The translations under genes were made by a program, and so were the position numbers. A DNA stretch of 64,000 nt from assembly GCA_001189195.1 (NCBI GenBank), contig LFCQ01000003.1, forward strand, positions 207,791 through 271,790, given 5' to 3'. The notes beneath the pieces were generated by a model, which saw nothing but the letters and a program-made list of their open reading frames with translations, searched no databases and was not told the origin of the DNA. The first letter of the stretch is position 1. Each line of letters begins with the position of its first letter. Below, piece after piece: positions 22,677 to 58,120 of the stretch. The stretch comes from Parcubacteria bacterium C7867-007. Its GTDB lineage: Bacteria > Patescibacteriota > Minisyncoccia > Phycocordibacterales > Phycocordibacteraceae.

Positions 22677-25502
22677 CTAGGTAAATAATTTAAGTAGATC
22701 GTCATACTCAGAAGGTTCTCCTTTACGCCATGCACCAGACCACAACTCCTGGATCACCTCTTCTAAGGTGGTGGCGAGCTGGGTACGTATATCGTCTGTG
22801 AGGGGTATGGGGTATTCAGTTACATCCTCTGGGGAAACCTGCACAATGCTGGCGTGTGTGGTGTTGTGTCCACCAGAACGAAGGAGAAGGTCGTAGAAGG
22901 CGAGCTGGCGAGCATGCTTTTCATCTTTGATATGAACATCGCTTGAAGTCTTGAAATCCACAATACACTCCCCTGCCGGCGTACTAAAGATTGCGTCCAC
23001 CTTTCCTTGGAGCTTAATGCTATGTCCGGCAATTTCCTTAGTGACAGAAAAGCCCTTCTCGATTGCAACCACTTCTTTCAGAGTGCCTTCGTGTGCAATG
23101 TATGAGGCAAGACTGTTCTGTGCATGCTCCACCACACGATTGTATGCAGCGTTACGCGGCAGGAGTGACTTCTTAAGGCACCGTGCCAGCGCTGCTTCGG
23201 CCTCCTCCTCACTCTTGGTTTCAAGATATGCAGCAATACCAGCATGAACCGCAATACCAATAGCCGTAGCGGGTGCTTCTGGTTCATGGAGACGAAGTAC
23301 ACGTCGAGCAAAGAAGGTACTTGGAGACTCAAGGTATTCATTCATTGCTGATGGTGAGAGACCATCCTTGGTGAGGAATTCCTGCACCAATTCACAGACT
23401 AGTTTTGACGCGTTAACGGAAGCATGCAGAACAGGAAGCGGATCATACGCAGGGGTGATGCTTGGTATAGCGGACGGGAGGAGGGCTGATGGTGGTGTTT
23501 CTCTTCCATCTGCAGATTCAGCAGCATAGGAAAATACCAGCTCATCCTTCGCTCGCGTGATAGCTACATAGAAAAGCTTTGTTATATCCTCCAAGCTTCG
23601 AGATTGATCCACGGGTGATGGAATCTTTGCCGGCATTCCTCCCTTTTCCCATTGTCGCGCGTTCATCCCAACCACAAAAACCTTTTTAAACTCCATACCC
23701 TTGGCCTTATGCGCGGTGATTACCGTTACCTTTCCTTCTGCGAAGGTGATGCTTGTTTTAACATTCTCAAGTCCATGTTCATTTGCTTGTATTAACGTGC
23801 GCACTACATCTGCAAATGATTGATTAGGATTGCGTGCTACCAGCTCTTCAATATGCATAAAGAGCTTTCGTACTAGAGTGATGTCTTCTAGGTGATCTGC
23901 GTGCGACAGAAGGAATGCTCGTGCACCTGAGTCTATTAGTAATTTAGAAAGAAGTGGAAGTGGTGCAGTGGTGAGAACAGCAGCACGTAGTGTTGCTAAT
24001 GCTTCAGCCACGTTGGGTGCACGGGATTCAAGTGCAAGCATCAGTTCATTGTCTCGGTTCTGGCGCAGGAGTTCTGCGCGCTCGGAAAGGGCGAGTGGCC
24101 ACCACGGAGCAAGTAGTGCTTCACGTACACTACTTACATCAAGGGGATCTGCAATTGCGCGCATAAGCGCAAGAATGCCTCGTAGCGTTGCCCGGCTGCT
24201 CAGCAGTACGTCACCAGCACGAAGTGTGGGTACACCACGTGCAGTGAGTATTTCTGCAAACTCATTTGCAGTACTATTGCGGGCTGCTATCACCGCAATC
24301 TCGTGAGGTTCTGTTCCCGCTGCGATAGCATCTGAAATAAGCTGTGCAATCTGATCACGTTCAGCAAGTGGATCAGGTGCTGCAAGTACTGATATGGTTG
24401 CTGATTCTTCTCTGCCAGCCAAGGCAAGGTGCGTGCCTGTAGCGCTTGGCACAGCCTGAATAAGCGTGTGTGCCTTGTCTAGAATGCCCTGACGTGAACG
24501 ATAGCTGGTGGTGAGTGAGATAACTTCTGTGCGTGGGTAGTGCTCCGTGAAAGTTTTGAAATGGGAACTGTCTGCACCCTGGAAACGATAGATTGCCTGC
24601 TTCTCATCACCCACAACGAAGATGTTTGGGTGCTCATCATATGCAAGTACATCCAAGAGCGCGTGCTGGAGTGCATTAGCATCTTGGTGTTCATCAGCAA
24701 GGACGTATTGGTACTGCTCCTGGATGGATGCCCGCAGTTCTGCGTCTTCACTAAGTCCATCCACAGCAATACGCAGCACATCGGCGAAGTCGTATACCTC
24801 ACGTTCCTCTTTAAGGGTTTCGTATGCTTCGATAAGGCGTGCAGCTTCATATACTTTCTCTAACCGATCAAGTTTCTTCTGTCCCTCTGGCTTTAGTTCT
24901 CCTTTGGCACCATGTTTGCTATCTCGTTGGTACTGTAGAGATTCATCAGTGCGAATTCGATCTGCTTCTGTACGTGCCCATGCACGATAGTCGTCCAGTG
25001 AGATACGCTCACGCAGCAAGTCGTTACGGAGCATCGCAAGATCCGTTAAATAGAAGTATGGAGACTTTGTAGTACGGAGCGCCACAAGATCTTCGTTCTC
25101 TAATACTTCACGCCATAGCAAGGTGCTCTCAACATCACCTGCCAGCCGTTTCCCTATTGCTTGTGGGAATGAGTCTTGATAGTTCTGAAGCAGGTGCTCT
25201 GCAAAGCCATGAAAGGTTGTTATAAAAACATCCCGTGCTGCCGTGTCTCCAATCATGCTCGCAAGACGTGTGCGTACCGTGCGTGCTGCGCTCTCGGTAA
25301 AGGTGAGGACGAGAATGTTGGTGGGGTTGGCCTGTGTTAAGCGAAGGATGTTCGCAATGCGCAGTGTGAGAATGTGGGTCTTGCCGGTACCCGGTCCAGC
25401 AATAACCAGTACTGGACCCTCTACCGTATCAACAGCCTTCTTCTGGGCTTCATTAAGAGTGCCGTATGCCTTTAGGAACATGCCCTGGTCCGTCTTATCC
25501 AT
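22677..25502 (-). CDS. UvrD/PcrA-type helicase fused to a C-terminal PD-(D/E)XK (RecB/Cas4-like) nuclease (AddA-like)
   Basis: Walker A GPGTGKTH, UvrD motifs (VLADEHQD, TTSYRS, VITAHKAKGMEFKKVFV), and a C-terminal ...CIVDFKTSSDVHIK...QLAFYDLLL nuclease core. Confidence 0.85.
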   Translation of the reverse strand: MDKTDQGMFLKAYGTLNEAQKKAVDTVEGPVLVIAGPGTGKTHILTLRIANILRLTQANPTNILVLTFTESAARTVRTRLASMIGDTAARDVFITTFHGFAEHLLQNYQDSFPQAIGKRLAGDVESTLLWREVLENEDLVALRTTKSPYFYLTDLAMLRNDLLRERISLDDYRAWARTEADRIRTDESLQYQRDSKHGAKGELKPEGQKKLDRLEKVYEAARLIEAYETLKEEREVYDFADVLRIAVDGLSEDAELRASIQEQYQYVLADEHQDANALQHALLDVLAYDEHPNIFVVGDEKQAIYRFQGADSSHFKTFTEHYPRTEVISLTTSYRSRQGILDKAHTLIQAVPSATGTHLALAGREESATISVLAAPDPLAERDQIAQLISDAIAAGTEPHEIAVIAARNSTANEFAEILTARGVPTLRAGDVLLSSRATLRGILALMRAIADPLDVSSVREALLAPWWPLALSERAELLRQNRDNELMLALESRAPNVAEALATLRAAVLTTAPLPLLSKLLIDSGARAFLLSHADHLEDITLVRKLFMHIEELVARNPNQSFADVVRTLIQANEHGLENVKTSITFAEGKVTVITAHKAKGMEFKKVFVVGMNARQWEKGGMPAKIPSPVDQSRSLEDITKLFYVAITRAKDELVFSYAAESADGRETPPSALLPSAIPSITPAYDPLPVLHASVNASKLVCELVQEFLTKDGLSPSAMNEYLESPSTFFARRVLRLHEPEAPATAIGIAVHAGIAAYLETKSEEEAEAALARCLKKSLLPRNAAYNRVVEHAQNSLASYIAHEGTLKEVVAIEKGFSVTKEIAGHSIKLQGKVDAIFSTPAGECIVDFKTSSDVHIKDEKHARQLAFYDLLLRSGGHNTTHASIVQVSPEDVTEYPIPLTDDIRTQLATTLEEVIQELWSGAWRKGEPSEYDDLLKLFT

Positions 25503-25896
25503 CCCTCCATTCTACCTGACCCGTATATGCTGCCTATCTCTTCATGAACCACCCTTCATGGTATGGTTTGTATCAGGAATAGGGAGGACCAGTGATGCGA
25601 ATTGCTACCCACACGTACCTTGTGATTCCGCGCCCTGCCCAGCGGATGGCGCACACTCGCAGGCTGGGGCACCGCGATTTCCGCTGGTTCCTCAAGCACA
25701 AACGGATCGGGCTCACAGGCCGTGGGCACATGTACCAGAGGACCTGCCAGCTCCGTGCTGAGCGTCGGCAGCGCTTCAAGACCATTCGACAGCAACGCCG
25801 GCAACGACAAGCTACCACCCTGCACAAGCATCAGTATCGCAGCTGACGTTCTGAGAATGCCCGGGAACCGCAGAAGCGGATCCCGGGCTTCTTCAT

Positions 25897-26484
25897 TTAC
25901 TTGAACCCACTTTTTAGTACGGAACGCAGTCGCTTGTATTCAGGTATGGTCTCTCCCACCAGGCTCCAGAACTTTGGGGAGTGATTGTGCTCCTTTGTGT
26001 GACAGAGCTCATGTACGACAAGGTAGTCTTGCTGTGCAGGGGGAAGATAGGCGATGCGGTAGTTGAATGATAGGTTACCCGCAGCAGAGCAGCTTCCCCA
26101 TCGCGTCTTTTGGTTACGAATGGAGATGCTTCCGTACGTAAATTTATAGTGTTCATTGAAATGACTGAGTCTTTCGGTACTGATTGCTCGAGCGATTGCC
26201 ACCGCTTGTTTGTATGCAGCACTTCCCATACGAGGCTTTGGTAGTAGGATTGGTTCTGCAATACCAAGCTTCCTTCGCTTCTGCTCTATCTTCTTGGTGC
26301 GTGCAATAAATGCTTCCTTTGTTTGAAGAATCCATGCCGTGCGCTGTTTTAGAAATGCTTCTGCAATATGTAGAGGCATACGAATGGGTTTGGTGAGGAG
26401 TACCCGTCCATCTGGAAATACATCAATCCGCAGGTGCTTTGCCCGTGCGGATTCTCTGATCTCATGCGTTACTGTTTGACCCAT
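25897..26484 (-). CDS. DUF45 / YgjP-like zinc metallopeptidase-fold hydrolase (M48/WLM-like)
   Basis: [16 protein letters not shown] contains the HExxH...NH zincin-like motif characteristic of DUF45. Confidence 0.7.
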
Positions 26485-26559
26485 ACTATATCTTTGCTAT
26501 CATACTCTTATTACGGCTTCGGCCTCCGAGAGTCTTCGCAGCAGTGCGAAGACTCGTGT

Positions 26560-26979
26560 TTATATTAGTGACACTAGCAAGGCTTGCTTAGTTTCTCGAA
26601 AGTCATCTTCAGAAATTGAACCTATTTTGCGTAGCAAGCGCTTGCTACTAATAACCCGTACTTGAGTAAGCTTCACCCACGAGAGTTTTCCACGAATCTG
26701 AACTGGATGATGGAACGAGTTCTCATGTTTTTTGCTAGTAACTGGCAGAACTAGCAGAGTAAGGGAATTATACACTTTTAAAACCAATACTGGTCTTTCA
26801 AACACACTATTCTTTCCATCAATTTCAGCTCCAATATTGAGTCCAAGTGCACACCACCAGACTTCGCGATTGTGTGCAAATATATGTACAGAACGTTTTT
26901 CGAGAAACTTTTTCTGCTGATTCCATGTATCAAAATCTTTCTCACTTTGCATGACCGCAGAAGTATACGCCATGCACAT
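26560..26979 (-). CDS. PemK/MazF-family toxin-like endoribonuclease (no cognate antitoxin gene seen)
   Basis: REVWWCALGLNIGAEIDGKNSVFERPVLVLKVYNSLTLLVLPVTSK...QIRGKLSWVKLTQVRVISSKRLLRKIGSISEDDFRETKQAL matches the MazF/NdoA pattern G-x-V-W-x-x-L-x-x-x-G-x-E-x-x-G-K...RP-V-L-V-L...L-P-x-T-S...IRTI-SK-RL...IG-LS. The start may be Met10 (26952). Confidence 0.6.
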   Translation of the reverse strand: MCMAYTSAVMQSEKDFDTWNQQKKFLEKRSVHIFAHNREVWWCALGLNIGAEIDGKNSVFERPVLVLKVYNSLTLLVLPVTSKKHENSFHHPVQIRGKLSWVKLTQVRVISSKRLLRKIGSISEDDFRETKQALLVSLI

Positions 26980-27344
26980 AAAATTAAACTGAATCTTTTA
27001 TGGAAAGGAAAAGGCCCGCGCATCTCGCGCGAGCCTCCTTTATTCCGCTGCCGCGGCGGTGCGGTCAGTCGTCCGGCGGGCTGCTGCCCTGCCGCGGCGT
27101 CACGACCCCCCGAAGCGGGGACTGCCGGGACTCGCGTCCCTTGTGCCCTTTCGAGCCCTTGCTGCCATTGCAGCGGCGGTTTTGGATTCGAGCCAACCTC
27201 TTCTCCCTAAGTACTTCCCTGAGCCCCATTTGCCCAGAAACTACAAGTTATAACATGAGGTATGGGAAGTCAAATATACTGAATGACTGACTCCCAAAGT
27301 ACGAACAATATCTTACGTCGATGTACTTCGTTTATACTCTCTAT

Positions 27345-27806
27345 ATGAAATCTGAATCCCGGTACTGGCTCGTTAAATCTGAGCCCTCCTCATACTCCAT
27401 TGATGATTTGAAGGTGGACAAAAAGACTTCTTGGACGGGTGTTCGTAACTATACAGCTCGAAACTTTATGCGTGATGCTATGAAGCAAGGTGATCCGGTT
27501 CTCTTCTATCATTCCAGCTGCCCTGTTCCGGGTGTGTATGGTATTGCGAAGGTTGTATCTAAATCATATCCAGACCCCACTCAGTTTGACCCCGCGTCTC
27601 CCTACTACGATCCGAAAGCAACTGAAGAGAAACCTATTTGGTATTTGGTTGATATTGGCTTTGTTGCAAAGCTAAAGGACCCCGTTACGTTAGACGCGAT
27701 GAAGAAGGACAAGAGATTGCAGAACATGACGTTGCTTCAGCGAGGAAATAGGTTGTCTGTGATGGAAGTTAGAGCTAATGAGTTTGTGGCAATTGAATCG
27801 TCTTAG
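27345..27806 (+). CDS. EVE-domain (PUA-like) protein
   Basis: RYWLVKSEPSSYSIDDL...WTGVRNYTARNFMRDAMKQGDPVLFYHSS...GVYGIAKVVS is the canonical EVE/THYN1 signature. Confidence 0.75.
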   Translation: MKSESRYWLVKSEPSSYSIDDLKVDKKTSWTGVRNYTARNFMRDAMKQGDPVLFYHSSCPVPGVYGIAKVVSKSYPDPTQFDPASPYYDPKATEEKPIWYLVDIGFVAKLKDPVTLDAMKKDKRLQNMTLLQRGNRLSVMEVRANEFVAIESS

Positions 27807-27906: not shown

Positions 27907-29202
27907 CTAATAACTCTTAAGACGTCGAGACTTCTCATGAGTCCTGATCTTCTCAAGTGCCTTTGCTTCAATCTGACGAATACGCTCACGGGTAACACCA
28001 AACTCCTTGCCTACTTCCTCAAGGGTGTGGTACACACCGTCGAGTAGACCATGGCGCATTTCAAGAATCTTGCGCTCCTTTGGTGAGAGGTCGTCGAGAA
28101 TGTCACGCACCTGTTCTGTGAGGATACGCTCAGATGATTCCTGAACCGGAGATGGAATCTTATCATCTGCAATAAAGTCTCCGAGGGTAGACTGATCATC
28201 ACCGTCAGAACCAACGGGATTCTCAAGTGAAAGAGTGTCCTGATTGATCTTCTCAATCTGGTAGATCTTATCTACCTCAACACCCATCTCAATAGCGATT
28301 TCTTCAGGCTGTGGGTCACGACCAAGTGCCTGTGCGAGACGGCGTGATACCTGCTTGTATTTAGCGATGGTCTCAACCATGTGCACAGGAATACGAATGG
28401 TGCGGGATTGGTCTGCAAGGGCACGAGTGATAGCCTGACGGATCCACCATGTTGCATAGGTTGAGAACTTGTATCCTTTCTTCCAATCGAACTTGTCTAC
28501 GGCCTTAAAGAGACCCAGGTTACCCTCTTGAATAAGGTCGAGGAGCGTGAGGTCAGGAGAACGACCTACGTACTTCTTTGCGATAGACACCACAAGACGA
28601 AGGTTTGAACGGGCAAGAATATTGCGTGCCTCTGCATCTCCCGCATCTATACGCTTTGCGAGTTCCTTCTCTTCTGCACCCGTAAGAAGTGGGTACTGGC
28701 CAATCTCACGAAGATAGATTTGGATGGAGTCGTATCCAGAAGACTCACGACCTTTGATGTTACGGGTTGCGAGATATTCATCTGCATTGTCTTCGAGCAT
28801 ACCTCCTTCAAGGATATCGATGCCTGCAATGGTGAAACGCTCATAAAGGTCATCGAGGAAGGATACGTCCTCTTCTACATGCGGGAACTCCTTAAGGATT
28901 TCACTGTATGTGATGTATCCACGCTCCTTGCCTTTCGCGATAAGGCGAGTTGCTTTGTCCTGGTTTGCCGCAGCAGCTTTTGCCTTAACACCCGTAACAG
29001 CAGCACGCACTACGTTCGCTGCACGGACATTCTTAGCAGCTTTCTTTGGTGCTGCTTTCTTAACAACCTTTTTGGGTGCAGCCTTCTTAACCACCTTCTT
29101 TGCAGGCTTTACCATTTTCTTGACTACTTTCTTAGGAGCAGCCTTCTTCACAACTTTCTTGGGTGAAGACTTTTTCACCACCTTCTTCTTTGCGGTAGGC
29201 AT
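27907..29202 (-). CDS. rpoD: RNA polymerase sigma-70 factor with N-terminal Lys/Ala/Pro-rich (histone H1-like) repeat domain
   Basis: Regions 2-4 are present ([38 protein letters not shown]; region 4 [21 protein letters not shown]). The N-terminal ~70 aa consist of ([11 protein letters not shown])n repeats. Confidence 0.9.
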
Positions 29203-29243: not shown

Positions 29244-30959
29244 CTACCGAACAGAATTTAGAGTTGCGAGCTGTGCACTTAGTGCACGAAAAGTATGCAT
29301 CGCTTCTGTAATGGATTCCTGATCACCCTGAGCTTCAGCAGTACGTAGCTGTTTGGTTGCTTCGTTTAGCTTAGCAGAAAGGACTGTTTGTTCGAACATC
29401 TGGAGCAATTCATCGCCCGCGTGTTGGTCTGGCGTCTCCCCGTAGGTGAGTCCCGCCTCAAAAAGGGCTCGCTCATCCACTGGTAAATCCAGCGAATCGT
29501 CAGCGCCTGTAATTCGAGTATATTCGGTCTTAAGGCGATCCGCAAGAGCAGTTCCCGCATAGGCCTGTATAACCGCTATAACCATGCCTCTTCGCACCTC
29601 AAGAACGGATGAAGGTACTGCGCTGCCTGAAAGTGTGGACACAGATAGTGGGGACTTCTCTTCTGGAGCAACCTCAAGTCTTGGGAGGGCACGTCGCACT
29701 GCTTCTGGTGTGGAGTTCACGGCTCGAGCGATGATGTCTATAAAACGATTCTGCTCTAGGGAACTTTTCACTGCCACAACAAGTGGAAGGACTATTCCCT
29801 CCACCGCTCGAAGGAGACGTGTCTCATCTTTCTCCTGAGCTGAGAGTACAGCAAGGAAGAATTCAATGATGCTCTTTGCATCCTTAGCGAGATTGGTAAA
29901 CGCATGCGCATCTTCACTCACGATATCTGCAGGATCTTTCCCTTCTGGCATACGAATAGCTTTCACACGCATACCGGCAAGCAAGGCAGCGCGTGCACTT
30001 TTGGCACTGGCTGCCAACCCTGCACGATCAGAGTCTAGACAGAGCATAAGGTTATCTGCATACCGTTTAATGAGCGAGAGGTGCTGTGTGGAGAGTGCGG
30101 TGCCAGAAAGAGCGATGGTGTTTGTGAATCCAGCTTGATGCAAAAGTATAAGATCAAACTGTCCTTCCACTAGGATAGCGAATCCTCTCTGGCGAATGGC
30201 ATCCTTGGCACGGTCCATACCAAAGAGAACTTCAGACTTCTTGAAGAGATCAGTTTCTGGAGAGTTCAGGTACTTTGCCTGGTCATCAGGGCTGAGTGCA
30301 CGGCCTGTAAAGGCGACAGTGCGTCCTGCTGCATCACGTATGGGAAACATGAGACGGTTCCTAAAACGGTCATAGAATGTACCTCGTTTCTCATCTGCCT
30401 CTTTCACCAGACCTGCAGCAGTTAGTTCAGGAAGCGTGAATCCTTCGCTGGTGAGAGACTCTAGAAGACTACGCCAGCCATCGGGAGCAAGGCCGAGATT
30501 CCATGCCGCTATGGTTTCTTTGGTGAGACCACGCTTTGCCGCGTATGCATATGCATCCGTACCTTCACCCAGTGCAGTTGAGAAATATACCTCTGCTTTC
30601 CCCATTGCTTCACGCAATCGTTCAACACGATCCTTTGAAGCACGATTCTCTGCACTTCCCTGGTACACAATCTCAATACCTGCTTTCTCTGCAAGAATCT
30701 TTAGTGCACCTTTGAAGTCCACACCCTCCATTGCTTGAATGAATGAAAATTGATCTCCTCCCTGACTAGAGGAGAAACAGTAGTACGAACCACGTTCTGG
30801 GTTTACGTAAAAGGAGGGGGTCTTTTCTTTATTAAAAGGTGATAGCCCACGATAGTACTTTCCTGCCTTTGTGAGCTTAACGTATGGAGAAATAACCTCG
30901 ACTATCGAGAGCTTATCCTTCACCTGCTGTACGGTATCTTCCCCAGCCATTTCCTTCAT
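29244..30959 (-). CDS. dnaG: DNA primase
   Basis: Zn-ribbon (YYCFSSSQGGDQFSF...), Toprim (ILVEGQFDLILLHQAGF...CLDSDRAG). Lies upstream of rpoD in the conserved MMS-operon arrangement. Confidence 0.9.
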   Translation of the reverse strand: MKEMAGEDTVQQVKDKLSIVEVISPYVKLTKAGKYYRGLSPFNKEKTPSFYVNPERGSYYCFSSSQGGDQFSFIQAMEGVDFKGALKILAEKAGIEIVYQGSAENRASKDRVERLREAMGKAEVYFSTALGEGTDAYAYAAKRGLTKETIAAWNLGLAPDGWRSLLESLTSEGFTLPELTAAGLVKEADEKRGTFYDRFRNRLMFPIRDAAGRTVAFTGRALSPDDQAKYLNSPETDLFKKSEVLFGMDRAKDAIRQRGFAILVEGQFDLILLHQAGFTNTIALSGTALSTQHLSLIKRYADNLMLCLDSDRAGLAASAKSARAALLAGMRVKAIRMPEGKDPADIVSEDAHAFTNLAKDAKSIIEFFLAVLSAQEKDETRLLRAVEGIVLPLVVAVKSSLEQNRFIDIIARAVNSTPEAVRRALPRLEVAPEEKSPLSVSTLSGSAVPSSVLEVRRGMVIAVIQAYAGTALADRLKTEYTRITGADDSLDLPVDERALFEAGLTYGETPDQHAGDELLQMFEQTVLSAKLNEATKQLRTAEAQGDQESITEAMHTFRALSAQLATLNSVR

Positions 30960-31072
30960 TCTACTCCAGAACGGAATTCACAGCACAAGTGTAAAAAGAT
31001 GGCCCCCGACGCGCAATGCGTCGGGGTGCCGTTGGGCGTCTCTTGCGAGACATTCTGGTCCGGAAGGTGGAC

Positions 31073-31261
31073 CTACTGGGTGGCGACCTGGTGGGTCACC
31101 GCGCCGACGCCGTTGTCCTGCTGCAGGCCGACCAGGGTGCGGGCGGCAGTGGCCGGCTGGCCGGTGTCGGTCGACGGAGCGGCGATGCTCTGCACGGTCG
31201 GGGCGCCGAAGGTGAGGGAGGAAACGAGCGCCATGTGGCGCGTGGTGCGATGGGAACTCAT
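31073..31261 (-). CDS. small high-GC ORF with signal-peptide-like N-terminus (hypothetical secreted peptide)
   Basis: MSSHRTTRHMALVSSLTFGAPTVQSIAAPSTDTGQPATAARTL...VATQ*. GC is ~65% versus ~50% nearby. It has its own terminator (CCCCGACGC-attgc-GCGTCGGGG + T-run, minus strand, ~31010-31045). Confidence 0.35.
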   Translation of the reverse strand: MSSHRTTRHMALVSSLTFGAPTVQSIAAPSTDTGQPATAARTLVGLQQDNGVGAVTHQVATQ

Positions 31262-31394
31262 GGGAACCTCGCTCGAAAGGACAGTTTTATCGAGGCGGAC
31301 GCCACGACTCACTCACTATACTCCTGTTCATGAAGACTGCAAGAACTTATACACAGATAAAGAAAAACGGCCTTTCGGCCGTCTTTCTAAGATA

Positions 31395-31524
31395 TCCTCG
31401 CTTATTTGCGGATTTCCCTCATCACTAGTAATACTATTCCTCAACGCAATAACCGTCAACATAATTGCGCCGGTGGAGGGACTTGAACCCTCGAGGATAT
31501 CTTGATGAGGGAAATCCTCGCAAA
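31395..31524. repeat. ~19-bp imperfect inverted repeat (ttgcgGAtttccctcatca / tgatgagggaaaTCCTcgcaa) flanking an ~88-bp core that contains a tRNA-like T-arm
   Basis: Arms are at 31395-31414 and 31503-31524; rc(right) = ttgcgAGGAtttccctcatca. Confidence 0.5.
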
Positions 31525-31536
31525 CCTGCCACCGAC
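31466..31536 (-). tRNA. tRNA-like element (canonical T-arm GAGGG-TTCAAGT-CCCTC and a 7-bp acceptor, but no clean D/anticodon arms)
   Basis: The minus-strand read is GTCGGTG GC ...GAGGGTTCAAGTCCCTC CACCGGC G CA. The acceptor pairs 7/7 with one G-U. The middle instead forms a 6-bp GAGGAT/ATCCTC stem with a 15-nt loop. Confidence 0.3.
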
Positions 31537-31651
31537 TCAAACAGGATATAAAAGGTGTGATGACGGCACGGTCCAAGGAAAATAAACTCTCACTGAATAA
31601 AAAGAACACTGCCCTTTCGAGCAGTGTTCTTTTTAAAACTTTGTTGGCAGG

Positions 31652-56014: not shown

Positions 56015-58120
56015 TTATCCGTTCACAATCGCAAGAGCACGTGTTGCTGCAAGCTTTGCACCGGTCATACCAGCTGAATAGCTTGAATCAATTGCTGTTG
56101 CAAGTGAAGAGACGAGACGCTCAAGGAAGTGCGTTGCGCAATCTGAAGTGATGCGTGCAATCTCAGGGTGACACGGGGTGCCATCAATGCGAGCGCGGTA
56201 TGCATCATCAAGAGCACAGACGGCATGTGCAAGGAATTCCTGTGCATCACCACCCGTACGGTTCACGGTACGGAGAGTACCGAATACTTGTTCGCGGTCT
56301 CCAGAAAGGAGTGCGCCAAGGAAGCCGGAAATATCATCCGAGTACGTGATGGTCTCTACCGGTGCAGCAACTGGTACTGCCTGTGGCATAACCTCTTCCT
56401 GAACCTCTACCTTCGCGGCGCGTGGTGCCATATCCATATCATACGATGGGATTGATGGTGCTTCTACCTGTTCAAGGTGTGGAGCAAATACCATTCCAGA
56501 CTCACGTGAGAGACCCTTTACGATGTCATCGATCGTGAGTGCTTCGTTTGTAGCGAAGGACTTGAATCCCTGCTGCTGAAGCTGGTTAAGCGCAGGCGCT
56601 GCTGAGACCTGTATTGGTTCGATGTGTGCAACGTGAGCAACAGGCTCATAGGTTGGGATCGCTACAGGCATTGGTGTTGATTGTGGCATAGGTTCCGTGA
56701 CTTGTGGTGCTTCTGAATTAATTGCTTCCTGTACATTACTACCAAATGCCTTTGCGCGTCGAATTGCGAATGGGACACCTGCAAAGAGAATGAGGTATGC
56801 CGCTGCACCACTCCAAAGCACGAGACTTATCCAATAGATGGTGGTGCCAACAGGACCGAGCTCAAGACCGGTGTATGGAATCTGTGAGAGGTACACAGAT
56901 GCGAGAGGCTGTGAAGACGCAAGCATAACGTTTGGTCGACTACGACCACCTCCTCCGCCACCTCCTCCGCCACCGCCGCCGCAGTTCTCTGTACAGCCAG
57001 TCGTTGGGATCTTAATCTCCACCTTACAACTTGGGTTTGAGGTATCACCAGGGACACTAAGCTGATAGGTAGTTTCTGATGTTGGGTTAACCGTCTTGGT
57101 GCCATTAAGGGCAACCGACTCACCATTAAGAGTAGCGGAACTTGCATTCTGCGTATTCCAGGTAAGGATCACGTCCTCACCTGACTTAATTGAAGTCTTG
57201 CTTGCGGTTAGAAGTACACACTTACCCGGGTTACCTCCTCCACCTCCTGGAGGAGTTGTTGTAGTGGTGATCTTTACACTCACCACGCAAGGATTGCTTC
57301 CAACTGCACTTGGTACTGTCGCAGTGTATGTAGTATCTGCAGTTGGCTTAACGGCAACTGTCCCGAATGGAATTTGGGTGAATGTGCCAACACCATTATC
57401 AATAGTGATTGATGTTGCGTTAGCAGTGGTCTGCCATGAAAGCTGAATAGTTTCACCTGCAGTGATTGTTGTCTGGCTCGCAGTGAGCGCAAGACACTTT
57501 GGTACCTCAGGTACTACCGGTGGGATAACCGGTGGAACTACGGGGGGTACCACTGGAGGTACTACTGGTGGAACTACGGGAGGTATCGTTGGAGGAACCA
57601 CAGGAGGTACCACTGGTGGAGTAGTCTCAGGGAGCGTACAACACGGAGGAAGTATGTCTGGTGGAGCTACTATCGGTGGTGTAAGTGGTGTGTCGCTGGG
57701 AACAGTACAGCAAGGTGGGAGTACATCCGGTGCAGGTGTTACGGGTGGTGTTGGAGGAGTTGAGTCGGGAATAGTACAACACGGAGGAAGTACGTCTGGT
57801 GGTGGTACCACAGGCGGTGTTGGTGTTGGCGCATCAGGTATGGTGCAGCACGGCGGCAGTGCATCCGGTTCAGGAGTTGGAACTATAGGTGGTGGTGGAA
57901 GTGGTGGGAGTACAGGAGGAGGTGGTGGAGGTGGAGGTGTTGGAACAGTACAGCAGGGCGGCAGTACATCGAAGGCTTTCACCATCTGCGGCGTAGCAAA
58001 ACCAGTCGCGAATGCAGTCGCCATTCCCACCGAAAGTACGGCGAGCACAGCGAACACACCCGTTGCGATAGGGTTTAGCTTTGAAGGCACGCGGCCGTTC
58101 GAAGAGTTGATTGATTCCAT
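56015..58120 (-). CDS. large Pro-rich surface protein with (D)VLPPCCT(V/I)P repeats, two Ig-like domains, a Gly12 run, an internal TM helix and a ~250-aa C-terminal cytoplasmic domain
   Basis: N-terminal TM/signal, then five PPCC repeats embedded in poly-Pro and (PPVV)n. Two ~90-aa Cys-bounded beta-rich modules follow (CLALTASQTTITAGETIQLSW...; CVLLTASKTSIKSGEDVILTW...). Then G12, IPYTG + TM + RRAK, and a C-terminal helical domain. Confidence 0.7.
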   Translation of the reverse strand: MESINSSNGRVPSKLNPIATGVFAVLAVLSVGMATAFATGFATPQMVKAFDVLPPCCTVPTPPPPPPPPVLPPLPPPPIVPTPEPDALPPCCTIPDAPTPTPPVVPPPDVLPPCCTIPDSTPPTPPVTPAPDVLPPCCTVPSDTPLTPPIVAPPDILPPCCTLPETTPPVVPPVVPPTIPPVVPPVVPPVVPPVVPPVIPPVVPEVPKCLALTASQTTITAGETIQLSWQTTANATSITIDNGVGTFTQIPFGTVAVKPTADTTYTATVPSAVGSNPCVVSVKITTTTTPPGGGGGNPGKCVLLTASKTSIKSGEDVILTWNTQNASSATLNGESVALNGTKTVNPTSETTYQLSVPGDTSNPSCKVEIKIPTTGCTENCGGGGGGGGGGGGRSRPNVMLASSQPLASVYLSQIPYTGLELGPVGTTIYWISLVLWSGAAAYLILFAGVPFAIRRAKAFGSNVQEAINSEAPQVTEPMPQSTPMPVAIPTYEPVAHVAHIEPIQVSAAPALNQLQQQGFKSFATNEALTIDDIVKGLSRESGMVFAPHLEQVEAPSIPSYDMDMAPRAAKVEVQEEVMPQAVPVAAPVETITYSDDISGFLGALLSGDREQVFGTLRTVNRTGGDAQEFLAHAVCALDDAYRARIDGTPCHPEIARITSDCATHFLERLVSSLATAIDSSYSAGMTGAKLAATRALAIVNG

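Follow-up and report, generated by a model that had tools for sequence, protein, structure and literature searches.

In canonical type II mazEF/pemIK modules, a small antitoxin gene lies immediately upstream of the toxin gene in the same operon. The antitoxin function for MazF-mx of Myxococcus xanthus is supplied in trans by the regulator MrpC. This solitary protein provides a precedent for a MazF without an adjacent antitoxin (PMC2701414). Among the EVE (PUA-like) proteins, a conserved, slowly evolving non-defence class has been distinguished from a fast-evolving defence class; EVE-containing toxin-antitoxin-like modules have been described with PIN/GNAT partners, not with MazF, and ASCH has been described alongside EVE as a related domain (Bell et al. 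2020, PMC7641849). Here we analyze a 64,000-nucleotide (nt) stretch of Parcubacteria bacterium C7867-007 (LFCQ01000003.1, positions 207,791-271,790; hereafter the window), in which genes encoding a UvrD-type helicase-nuclease, a DUF45/YgjP-like zincin, a MazF/PemK-fold endoribonuclease and a divergent EVE protein had been read, from the sequence only, as a defence-island-like cluster. The comparative evidence makes it likely that the region is instead a Parcubacteria core-genome block with a variable slot, and that the four genes lie together through synteny and an insertion hotspot, not through a shared mechanism.

The four open reading frames (ORFs) exist at the coordinates originally proposed, and Pfam confirms the family of each. 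On the minus strand, positions 22677-25502 encode a 941-amino acid (aa) superfamily 1 helicase of the UvrD type with a C-terminal RecB/Cas4-like PD-(D/E)XK nuclease; positions 25897-26484 encode a 195-aa zinc metallohydrolase of the DUF45/YgjP-like type (Pfam, 1.5e-41), with HELCH as its HExxH motif; and positions 26560-26952 encode a solitary, 130-aa MazF/PemK-fold endoribonuclease-like protein, identified by Pfam and the family alignment, whose ORF reaches 26979. The 75-nt gap between the last two was confirmed. On the plus strand, a stand-alone EVE protein of about 153 aa occupies positions 27345-27806 (Pfam EVE, 1.1e-57); its ORF opens at 27321, but comparing it with its relatives places the real start probably at 27345. 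EVE is transcribed divergently from MazF, DUF45 and an intervening GC-rich unit.

Gene order was compared across seven DUF45 homologues located on long contigs (54-68% identical), together with L001 and L090, which with the window defined a clade set of ten lineages (the window, L001, L081, L082/83, L084/85, L086, L087, L088, L089 and L090; L081 is genome C7867-008). The comparison outlined a conserved backbone, (rpoB-rpoC-)dnaG-rpoD-variable slot-EVE(-)-MazF or not-DUF45(+)-0 to 3 unrelated small genes-UvrD/PD-(D/E)XK(+)-x-dsbA(-)-small gene(-)-exonuclease(-)-hisS(-). DUF45 is followed by the helicase-nuclease gene in 10/10 lineages, with the orthologue of the latter (57-88% identity) at the same position in all of them, while EVE has an orthologue at the corresponding site in 8/10 (70-78% identity) and MazF is present in 4/10. 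The dsbA-exo-hisS flank is kept across the clade. On the other side, rpoD (27907-29202, minus strand; Pfam sigma-70 regions 1.1 to 4) and dnaG (29244-30959, minus strand; assigned by homology to the Pfam-annotated dnaG of related loci) also precede the slot in L081, L084/85, L086, L087 and L090, and the range fetched for L082 shows rpoD only. These data suggest that the helicase-nuclease and DUF45 genes are vertically inherited backbone genes of the lineage. Present in 10/10 genomes in the same order, the helicase-nuclease gene is therefore a lineage-conserved orthologue, an outcome that the sequence-only reading had itself set against its four-gene unit.

The content of the slot varies markedly among these genomes. 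In L087 it holds no annotated gene, rpoD being followed directly by DUF45 and then by the helicase-nuclease gene, and in L090 it holds EVE only. Elsewhere it encodes an MmeI-type restriction-modification (R-M) enzyme, a helicase and T5orf172 (L089), an 883-aa N6/N4 methyltransferase (L086), SNF2+DUF2779 (L088), an SNF2-like helicase with a nuclease-like protein (L001), or Peptidase_M78+DUF4411, MazG and an SLFN-like helicase (L082). If a defence island is defined operationally as a fixed chromosomal site whose content varies and, among relatives, is enriched in known defence genes, the rpoD-DUF45 slot qualifies: at one extreme, in L087, it lacks any annotated gene, and at the other it exceeds 5 kb and contains R-M and defence-type genes. 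DUF45 and the UvrD/nuclease gene, as invariant flank, do not qualify. The proposal of a defence-island-like cluster hence survives for the slot, variable and loaded with defence cargo in sister genomes, but not for the two backbone genes. The rpoD-DUF45 interval would thereby represent an insertion hotspot, which in the window carries EVE, the solitary gene for a MazF-fold RNase and, between them, a non-coding unit rich in GC.

Within this arrangement, the MazF gene behaves like slot cargo, as judged from sequence identities. The slot MazF copies are 38-60% identical to that of the window, and the backbone proteins 57-99%; furthermore, these copies are no closer to the window MazF than the best database-wide matches (57-62%). 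The neighborhood of the MazF family was sampled at its best 80 genomic loci, a sample weighted toward closer relatives, with neighboring genes delimited by a simple in-house ORF caller. DUF45 was the next gene in 3/77 loci (L001, L015 and L072), EVE was adjacent in 2/80 and a UvrD-like gene was found within 8 kb in 4/80. Conversely, a distant DUF45 set, likewise the best 80 loci and drawn from metagenomes (36-59% identity), contained this MazF in 0/80 cases, EVE in 2/80 and a UvrD-like gene in 3/80.

These distributions bear directly on the idea of a novel helicase-nuclease defence system, in which EVE would sense modified phage nucleic acid, the helicase-nuclease would degrade it, MazF would act as an abortive-infection RNase and DUF45 as a regulator. 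The defence genes found in the slot of sister genomes are in keeping with such a system, as are the known association of the EVE and DUF45 families with R-M neighborhoods (PMC7641849), the presence of HsdR beside four of about 66 distant DUF45 loci and of hsdM beside DUF45 in L015, and the joint occurrence of the four genes in L001, L082 and L084/85. However, this co-occurrence is inseparable from the conservation of the rpoB-to-hisS block, and the four genes are never together outside the clade. The parts also occur independently, at the frequencies given above, and MazF shifts position, being found in the EVE-DUF45 interval of three lineages but in the DUF45-UvrD interval of L082. In addition, PADLOC yields generic GajB similarity only, no system-level result was returned by PADLOC, NCBIfam or PHROGs for any of the parts, and the Pfam match of the EVE protein (1e-57) resembles those of the non-defence EVE class (Bell et al. 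2020, PMC7641849). We thus consider a multi-gene defence system very unlikely.

Several observations nonetheless weigh against explaining the arrangement by synteny and a hotspot alone. The divergent genome L072 (DUF45 51% and EVE 52% identical) keeps EVE, MazF and DUF45 in this order on one strand, while its flanks differ, with NUDIX upstream and gyrB downstream. YgjP-like is also the most frequent family directly downstream of MazF, though at 3/77 loci, and one protein (P0036) fuses MazF to an ASCH/DUF3850 domain, ASCH being related to EVE (Bell et al. 2020, PMC7641849). These hints leave a small probability that, in some lineages, MazF is weakly linked in function to PUA-like or DUF45 proteins, but they lend no support to a four-gene system. 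The region is best described as an ordinary syntenic core segment beside a small variable slot that holds EVE, the GC-rich unit and a MazF-fold RNase, which is solitary and probably mobile.

The proximity of MazF and DUF45 had also suggested unconventional toxin control, with the zincin acting as antitoxin or regulator of MazF, for instance by cleaving MazF itself or a labile inhibitor. The two genes do lie 75 nt apart on the same strand, their adjacency recurs in L001, L015, L072 and L084/85, and no family is found downstream of MazF more often than YgjP-like. Yet the downstream gene is a different one at 74/77 MazF loci, none of the 80 distant DUF45 loci contains this MazF and 6/10 clade genomes have DUF45 without MazF. 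Furthermore, three genes intervene between the two in L082, and the DUF45 gene of L015 is part of an hsdM-containing type I R-M cluster. Control of MazF by the zincin is accordingly a highly improbable explanation, and the original suggestion does not hold.

The EVE protein matches PF01878 with 194.5 bits over profile positions 1-143 of 145. This very strong match suggests that it resembles the non-defence class (Bell et al. 2020, PMC7641849), and the conservation pattern suggests a slowly evolving gene that behaves more like the backbone than MazF does. A two-gene module in which EVE, as a PUA-like reader, would target or restrain the RNase is compatible with EVE adjoining MazF in the window, in L084/85 and in L072, and lying one gene off in L001, with the single ASCH/DUF3850-MazF fusion, and with the existence of EVE toxin-antitoxin-like modules, though with PIN/GNAT (Bell et al. 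2020, PMC7641849). It is improbable given that 78/80 MazF loci lack EVE within 8 kb, that EVE is kept without MazF in L081, L088, L089 and L090, that no ASCH-like neighbor was detected in 89 loci (L001-L089), and that in the window EVE and MazF diverge from each other, with an independent transcription unit between them. As a separate observation, a gene for a MazG-like/NUDIX pyrophosphohydrolase is located near EVE in three genomes (L001, 7221-7583; L082, 4112-4459; L072, 6870-7415), abutting EVE in L001 and L072 and lying two genes off in L082.

The sequence-only reading had pointed to GC-rich spacers around these genes, and they are genuine outliers, with peaks of 69% and 81% against a window mean of 49% (standard deviation 6% for segments of 80 nt). 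The 81% peak (26999-27194) belongs to a GC-rich non-coding transcription unit on the minus strand (27002-27273), delimited by a promoter-like site and a terminator. At its head, TTGACT (27273-27268) and a TG-extended TATAAC (27255-27247) form the promoter-like site, followed by an invariant 25-mer, the GC-rich body, a hairpin (27035-27013) and a T-tract (27012-27002). The unit is 68% identical over 282 nt to positions 6716-6986 of L081, an EVE-DUF45 intergenic region in a genome without MazF at the site. The fold z-score is -2.8 in the window and -4.4 in L081, and seven base pairs are changed on both sides, as counted from these two sequences. In L001, too, this place is taken by a terminator-bearing GC-rich unit, although only the promoter-like site and the 5' end are common to both. 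No Rfam match was found for the unit.

Two kinds of hidden antitoxin upstream of MazF were considered in this interval. A 54-codon ORF (27065-27229, minus strand) was rejected: it has no family match, its mismatches against L081 are spread over the three codon positions (16/17/14) and indels shift its frame, from which we conclude that it is not under coding selection. The alternative is that the unit serves MazF as its own attenuator or as an RNA antitoxin, of type III/ToxIN-like or type I-like kind, for which the order of promoter, structured GC-rich RNA, terminator and toxin gene, the folding z-score of -2.8 and the similarly placed unit of L001 could be invoked. Type III modules are characterized by a tandem-repeat RNA antitoxin and a terminator; the terminator is present here, but there are no tandem repeats at 26980-27320. 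A homologous unit precedes DUF45 in MazF-less L081, and for this reason the unit is unlikely to be a MazF antitoxin. In addition, MazF is not preceded by such a unit in L084/85, where the gap is 70 nt, or in L082, and most members of the MazF family begin a few tens of nt past an upstream housekeeping gene. We regard a dedicated RNA antitoxin or attenuator as extremely unlikely, and read the unit, on comparative grounds, as a putative independent small non-coding transcription unit or leader. In proteobacteria a 6S RNA is found beside EVE (PMC7641849); this identity was also rejected for the unit, which has no covariance-model match and does not fold like 6S RNA. Likewise, a foreign origin of the unit was not supported, with no plasmid match and the invariant 25-mer absent from viral contigs, and the three GC-rich patches of the window have no repeats in common.

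In Parcubacteria bacterium C7867-007 the MazF protein is annotated as AB202_01355 (100% identity), and both the public annotation and the alignment of the family place its start at 26952 (130 aa), not at 26979. Its PemK_toxin (PF02452) score is 61.4 bits (cut-off 23.1; E 1.1e-16), and it also matches phrog_9567, a 'MazF-like growth inhibitor', at 3.7e-16. More than 500 homologues were found, mostly of about 127 aa, and the organism-named ones among the matches listed are Patescibacteria-type metagenome-assembled genomes. In an alignment of 30 homologues (mean column identity 44%), R53-P54 and P70-x-T72 are invariant; from the position of the RP and P-x-T motifs, we infer that R53 and T72 correspond to the catalytic R29 and T52 of Escherichia coli MazF. 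The subfamily also conserves an N-terminal segment, K-D-F-D-x-W-N-x-x-K-K, that is foreign to canonical MazF. In the AlphaFold2 model (predicted local distance difference test score 85.9), this segment forms a helix (residues 7-19) ahead of the MazF barrel, and the protein is predicted to adopt the SH3-like barrel fold of MazF/Kid/CcdB. The best Foldseek matches are the Staphylococcus aureus, Mycobacterium tuberculosis and Bacillus subtilis MazF structures, with TM-scores of 0.6-0.75 depending on normalisation, and toxins of the MazF/PemK family (MazF, EndoA/YdcE, MoxT) account for every one of the top 50 Foldseek PDB matches (probability 1.0; target-length TM-score 0.63-0.75). Sequence similarity to the solved MazFs is distant (E about 1e-4 with the family profile). 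We found nothing usable in the literature on the FDxWNxxKK MazF subfamily in Patescibacteria, on DUF45 in R-M systems or on a pVir toxin. Two further observations concern this subfamily. P0036 (229 aa, on a 1.2-kb contig) carries its ASCH/DUF3850 domain fused in frame to the N-terminus of the MazF domain, and is a single case among the matches listed. Tandem paralogues of the solitary MazF were seen in some genomes of Patescibacteria, namely in L032 (8004-8387 and 8616-9002) and also in L004.

The earlier claim that this MazF has no recognizable antitoxin was borne out and can be extended to the subfamily. No gene of MazE, AbrB or ribbon-helix-helix type was detected upstream of the window MazF in the ORF list or with Pfam, PADLOC or NCBIfam, and across the 80 loci there was neither a MazE-like partner nor a conserved neighbor. 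The flanking genes are non-recurrent, the biggest neighbor cluster having four members. When 76 upstream neighbors and 77 downstream ones were assigned with Pfam, no antitoxin family was shared by at least two loci; genes for aminoacyl-tRNA synthetases, subunits of RNA polymerase, PolA, RecA and topoisomerase were among those identified. In 20/52 cases the same-strand upstream neighbor ends at most 45 nt from MazF, leaving no space for an antitoxin gene. Ten small same-strand ORFs upstream of MazF comprised L2, L33, GIY-YIG, DUF3276, membrane-like peptides and ORFs with weak or no matches, none of them antitoxin-like. Since the 80 loci show neither a conserved neighbor nor a MazE-like partner, the "orphan" state appears to be the norm for this subfamily. 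Three further records of the same subfamily, N-terminal motif included and without annotated antitoxin, come from prophage CJIE4, Campylobacter jejuni plasmid pVir and a Nitratiruptor plasmid. In the Campylobacter prophage CJIE4-3 (L172, 2480-2914), the subfamily MazF was observed alone between the large terminase and portal genes.

Because this MazF is patchy in Patescibacteria, occurs on Campylobacterota plasmids and prophages and has no adjacent antitoxin in the 80 loci or the three annotated records, it may be an accessory, mobile RNase whose activity would be controlled in trans or intrinsically. None of the zincin, EVE or the upstream RNA appears to control it. A more elaborate scenario would see the FDxWNxxKK MazF as an antitoxin-less RNase class, with the helix acting as a built-in inhibitor or the protein as a domesticated RNA-processing enzyme, moving between Patescibacteria chromosomes and Campylobacterota plasmids or phages and cooperating in some lineages with PUA-like readers on modified nucleic acids, and the GC-rich unit as an undescribed small RNA; taken jointly, we deem this combination unlikely, though not negligible. 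That this MazF subfamily, large and equipped with an extra N-terminal helix, seems to be solitary throughout does raise the question of how such an RNase stays harmless.

The backbone pair deserves separate consideration. Pfam resolves the 941-aa protein into UvrD-helicase (2.7e-57), UvrD_C (9e-30) and PDDEXK_1 (3.9e-20), whereas its scores of 115-247 bits fall well below the NCBIfam equivalog cut-offs (about 700-1700) for PcrA, UvrD, Rep, RecB and AddA. It may be an AddA/AdnB/RecB-like DNA-end-processing enzyme. No AddB/AdnA/RecC/RecD-like partner adjoins it, its neighbors being DUF45 and a DsbA-like protein, nor was one found among ten other large ORFs scanned with Pfam, rpoB/rpoC being placed by synteny only. 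The DUF45 protein matches YgjP-like (PF01863) with 143 bits against a cut-off of 26, and an alignment of 28 homologues shows no variation at its zinc-motif residues H158, E159 and H162. The family search returned more than 2000 homologues, the organism-named ones among the matches listed being mostly from Patescibacteria/Parcubacteria.

At the distant DUF45 loci, the commonest neighbors are DEAD/ResIII helicases, the four HsdR cases among them. In the metagenome contigs L136 and L154, DUF45 is directly followed by a UvrD-like helicase 24-26% identical to that of the window. These two UvrD-like neighbors and the four HsdR neighbors suggest a general association of DUF45 with large enzymes of the helicase or nuclease type. 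Given that its distant relatives most often adjoin HsdR or other helicases, the zincin could work with or on large helicase-nucleases. Domain content and neighborhood are the basis both for a possible DNA-repair role of the helicase-nuclease and for a possible partnership of DUF45 with it. The recurrent pairing of DUF45 with such enzymes, UvrD/PD-(D/E)XK here and HsdR elsewhere, may offer a clue to the function of this zincin, which is widespread but uncharacterised.

The second spacer, between the DUF45 and helicase-nuclease genes (25503-25896; 394 nt, 63-69% GC as read from the sequence), peaks at 69% GC in 25596-25783. It contains an Arg-rich ORF of 83/84 aa (25592-25846, plus strand) with a GGAGG Shine-Dalgarno-like site, on the strand opposite to DUF45, and a hairpin (about 25858-25885) between the stops of this ORF and DUF45. 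The ORF is an ORFan, its sole match among 1.84 billion representative proteins being itself, and it returned no Pfam, PADLOC, NCBIfam or PHROG matches. On account of its ORFan status it was rejected as an antitoxin candidate, and an S21-like identity was unsupported by Pfam. In relatives, the DUF45-helicase interval holds different, mutually unrelated small genes or nothing. A terminator-like scan also located a hairpin with an 11-bp stem (26530-26555) in the MazF-DUF45 gap, and the segment flanking it is 79% identical in the sister genome L001.

Outside the cluster, a second GC island (31000-31276, minus strand) upstream of dnaG reaches 79% GC and contains a 62-codon ORF with a terminator-like hairpin after it. 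The island aligns with positions 1723-1913 of L081 (75% identity, 201 nt), where a 70-codon ORF shares the motifs APSTDxGQ and THQVxTQ-stop, and it could encode a small secreted peptide or represent a non-coding RNA. Between rpoC and this island, positions 31362-31545 (minus strand) form a structured RNA candidate (minimum free energy -73 kcal/mol, z -5.8), with a tRNA-like acceptor stem and T-arm (GAGGGUUCAAGUCCCUC) inside a long-range helix of about 20 bp, followed by a terminator. Its Rfam matches are weak only (mascRNA-menRNA, 24.7 bits, E 0.014; tRNA-Sec, 16.7 bits), ARAGORN calls no tRNA in it, and it is not conserved in L081. The rpoD N-terminus (29003-29187, minus strand) shows a repetitive, Lys/Ala/Val-rich, histone-H1-like tail before region 1.1, encoded by a family of DNA direct repeats. 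Finally, a 701-aa ORF without Pfam match (56015-58120, minus strand) contains tandem 12-nt and 69-nt repeats at 57498-57878, with a strong local GC skew of 0.25.

The remainder of the window is housekeeping in nature and encodes, among others, DnaE, RNase R, SMC, GyrB, aminoacyl-tRNA synthetases and RpoB/C. Rfam at the gathering threshold returned no matches in the whole window and ARAGORN no tRNA or tmRNA, while Rfam in E-value mode on 25400-27400 gave only weak, terminator-driven matches. Overall, these results indicate that the cluster should not be carried forward as a new defence or toxin-control system. The rpoD-DUF45 hotspot, on the other hand, could anchor searches for defence cargo in the streamlined genomes of Patescibacteria.

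In comparison with described systems, the window MazF shares with the type II mazEF/pemIK toxins of S. aureus, B. subtilis, M. tuberculosis and E. coli a common fold and the retained Arg (RP) and Thr (P-x-T), but departs from them in having no upstream MazE/PemI gene, here or in the 80 related loci, and in its FDxWNxxKK N-terminal helix and longer β1-β2 loop. Like MazF-mx it is a MazF-family gene without an adjacent antitoxin, although of a different subfamily. To its own subfamily belong the PemK/MazF-like genes of Campylobacterota mobile elements (CJIE4, pVir, Nitratiruptor and Helicobacter plasmids; phrog_9567), which align over the full length at 31-36% identity and have the same FDxWNxxKK N-terminus, RPV and P-x-(T/S)-S motifs; these are borne by plasmids and prophages, whereas the window MazF resides in a chromosomal slot of a Patescibacteria genome. 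The helicase-nuclease resembles the AddA, AdnB and RecB enzymes in combining a UvrD-like superfamily 1 motor and a C-terminal RecB-family PD-(D/E)XK nuclease in one chain. Its helicase part is also matched by the PADLOC GajB profiles of Gabija (2e-69), but unlike Gabija the protein carries a C-terminal nuclease and is the product of a syntenic core gene, and no GajA (OLD-family ATPase/TOPRIM nuclease) is found nearby, the PADLOC models matching no neighboring protein. The zincin, in turn, belongs to the same Pfam family as the R-M-linked DUF45/YgjP proteins and has their HExxH motif, its distant homologues adjoining HsdR (four cases) or hsdM (L015). No hsdR, hsdM or hsdS gene lies within about 10 kb on either side of the window DUF45, and, unlike for those R-M-linked zincins, the neighbor of DUF45 in all ten clade genomes is the UvrD/PD-(D/E)XK helicase-nuclease.

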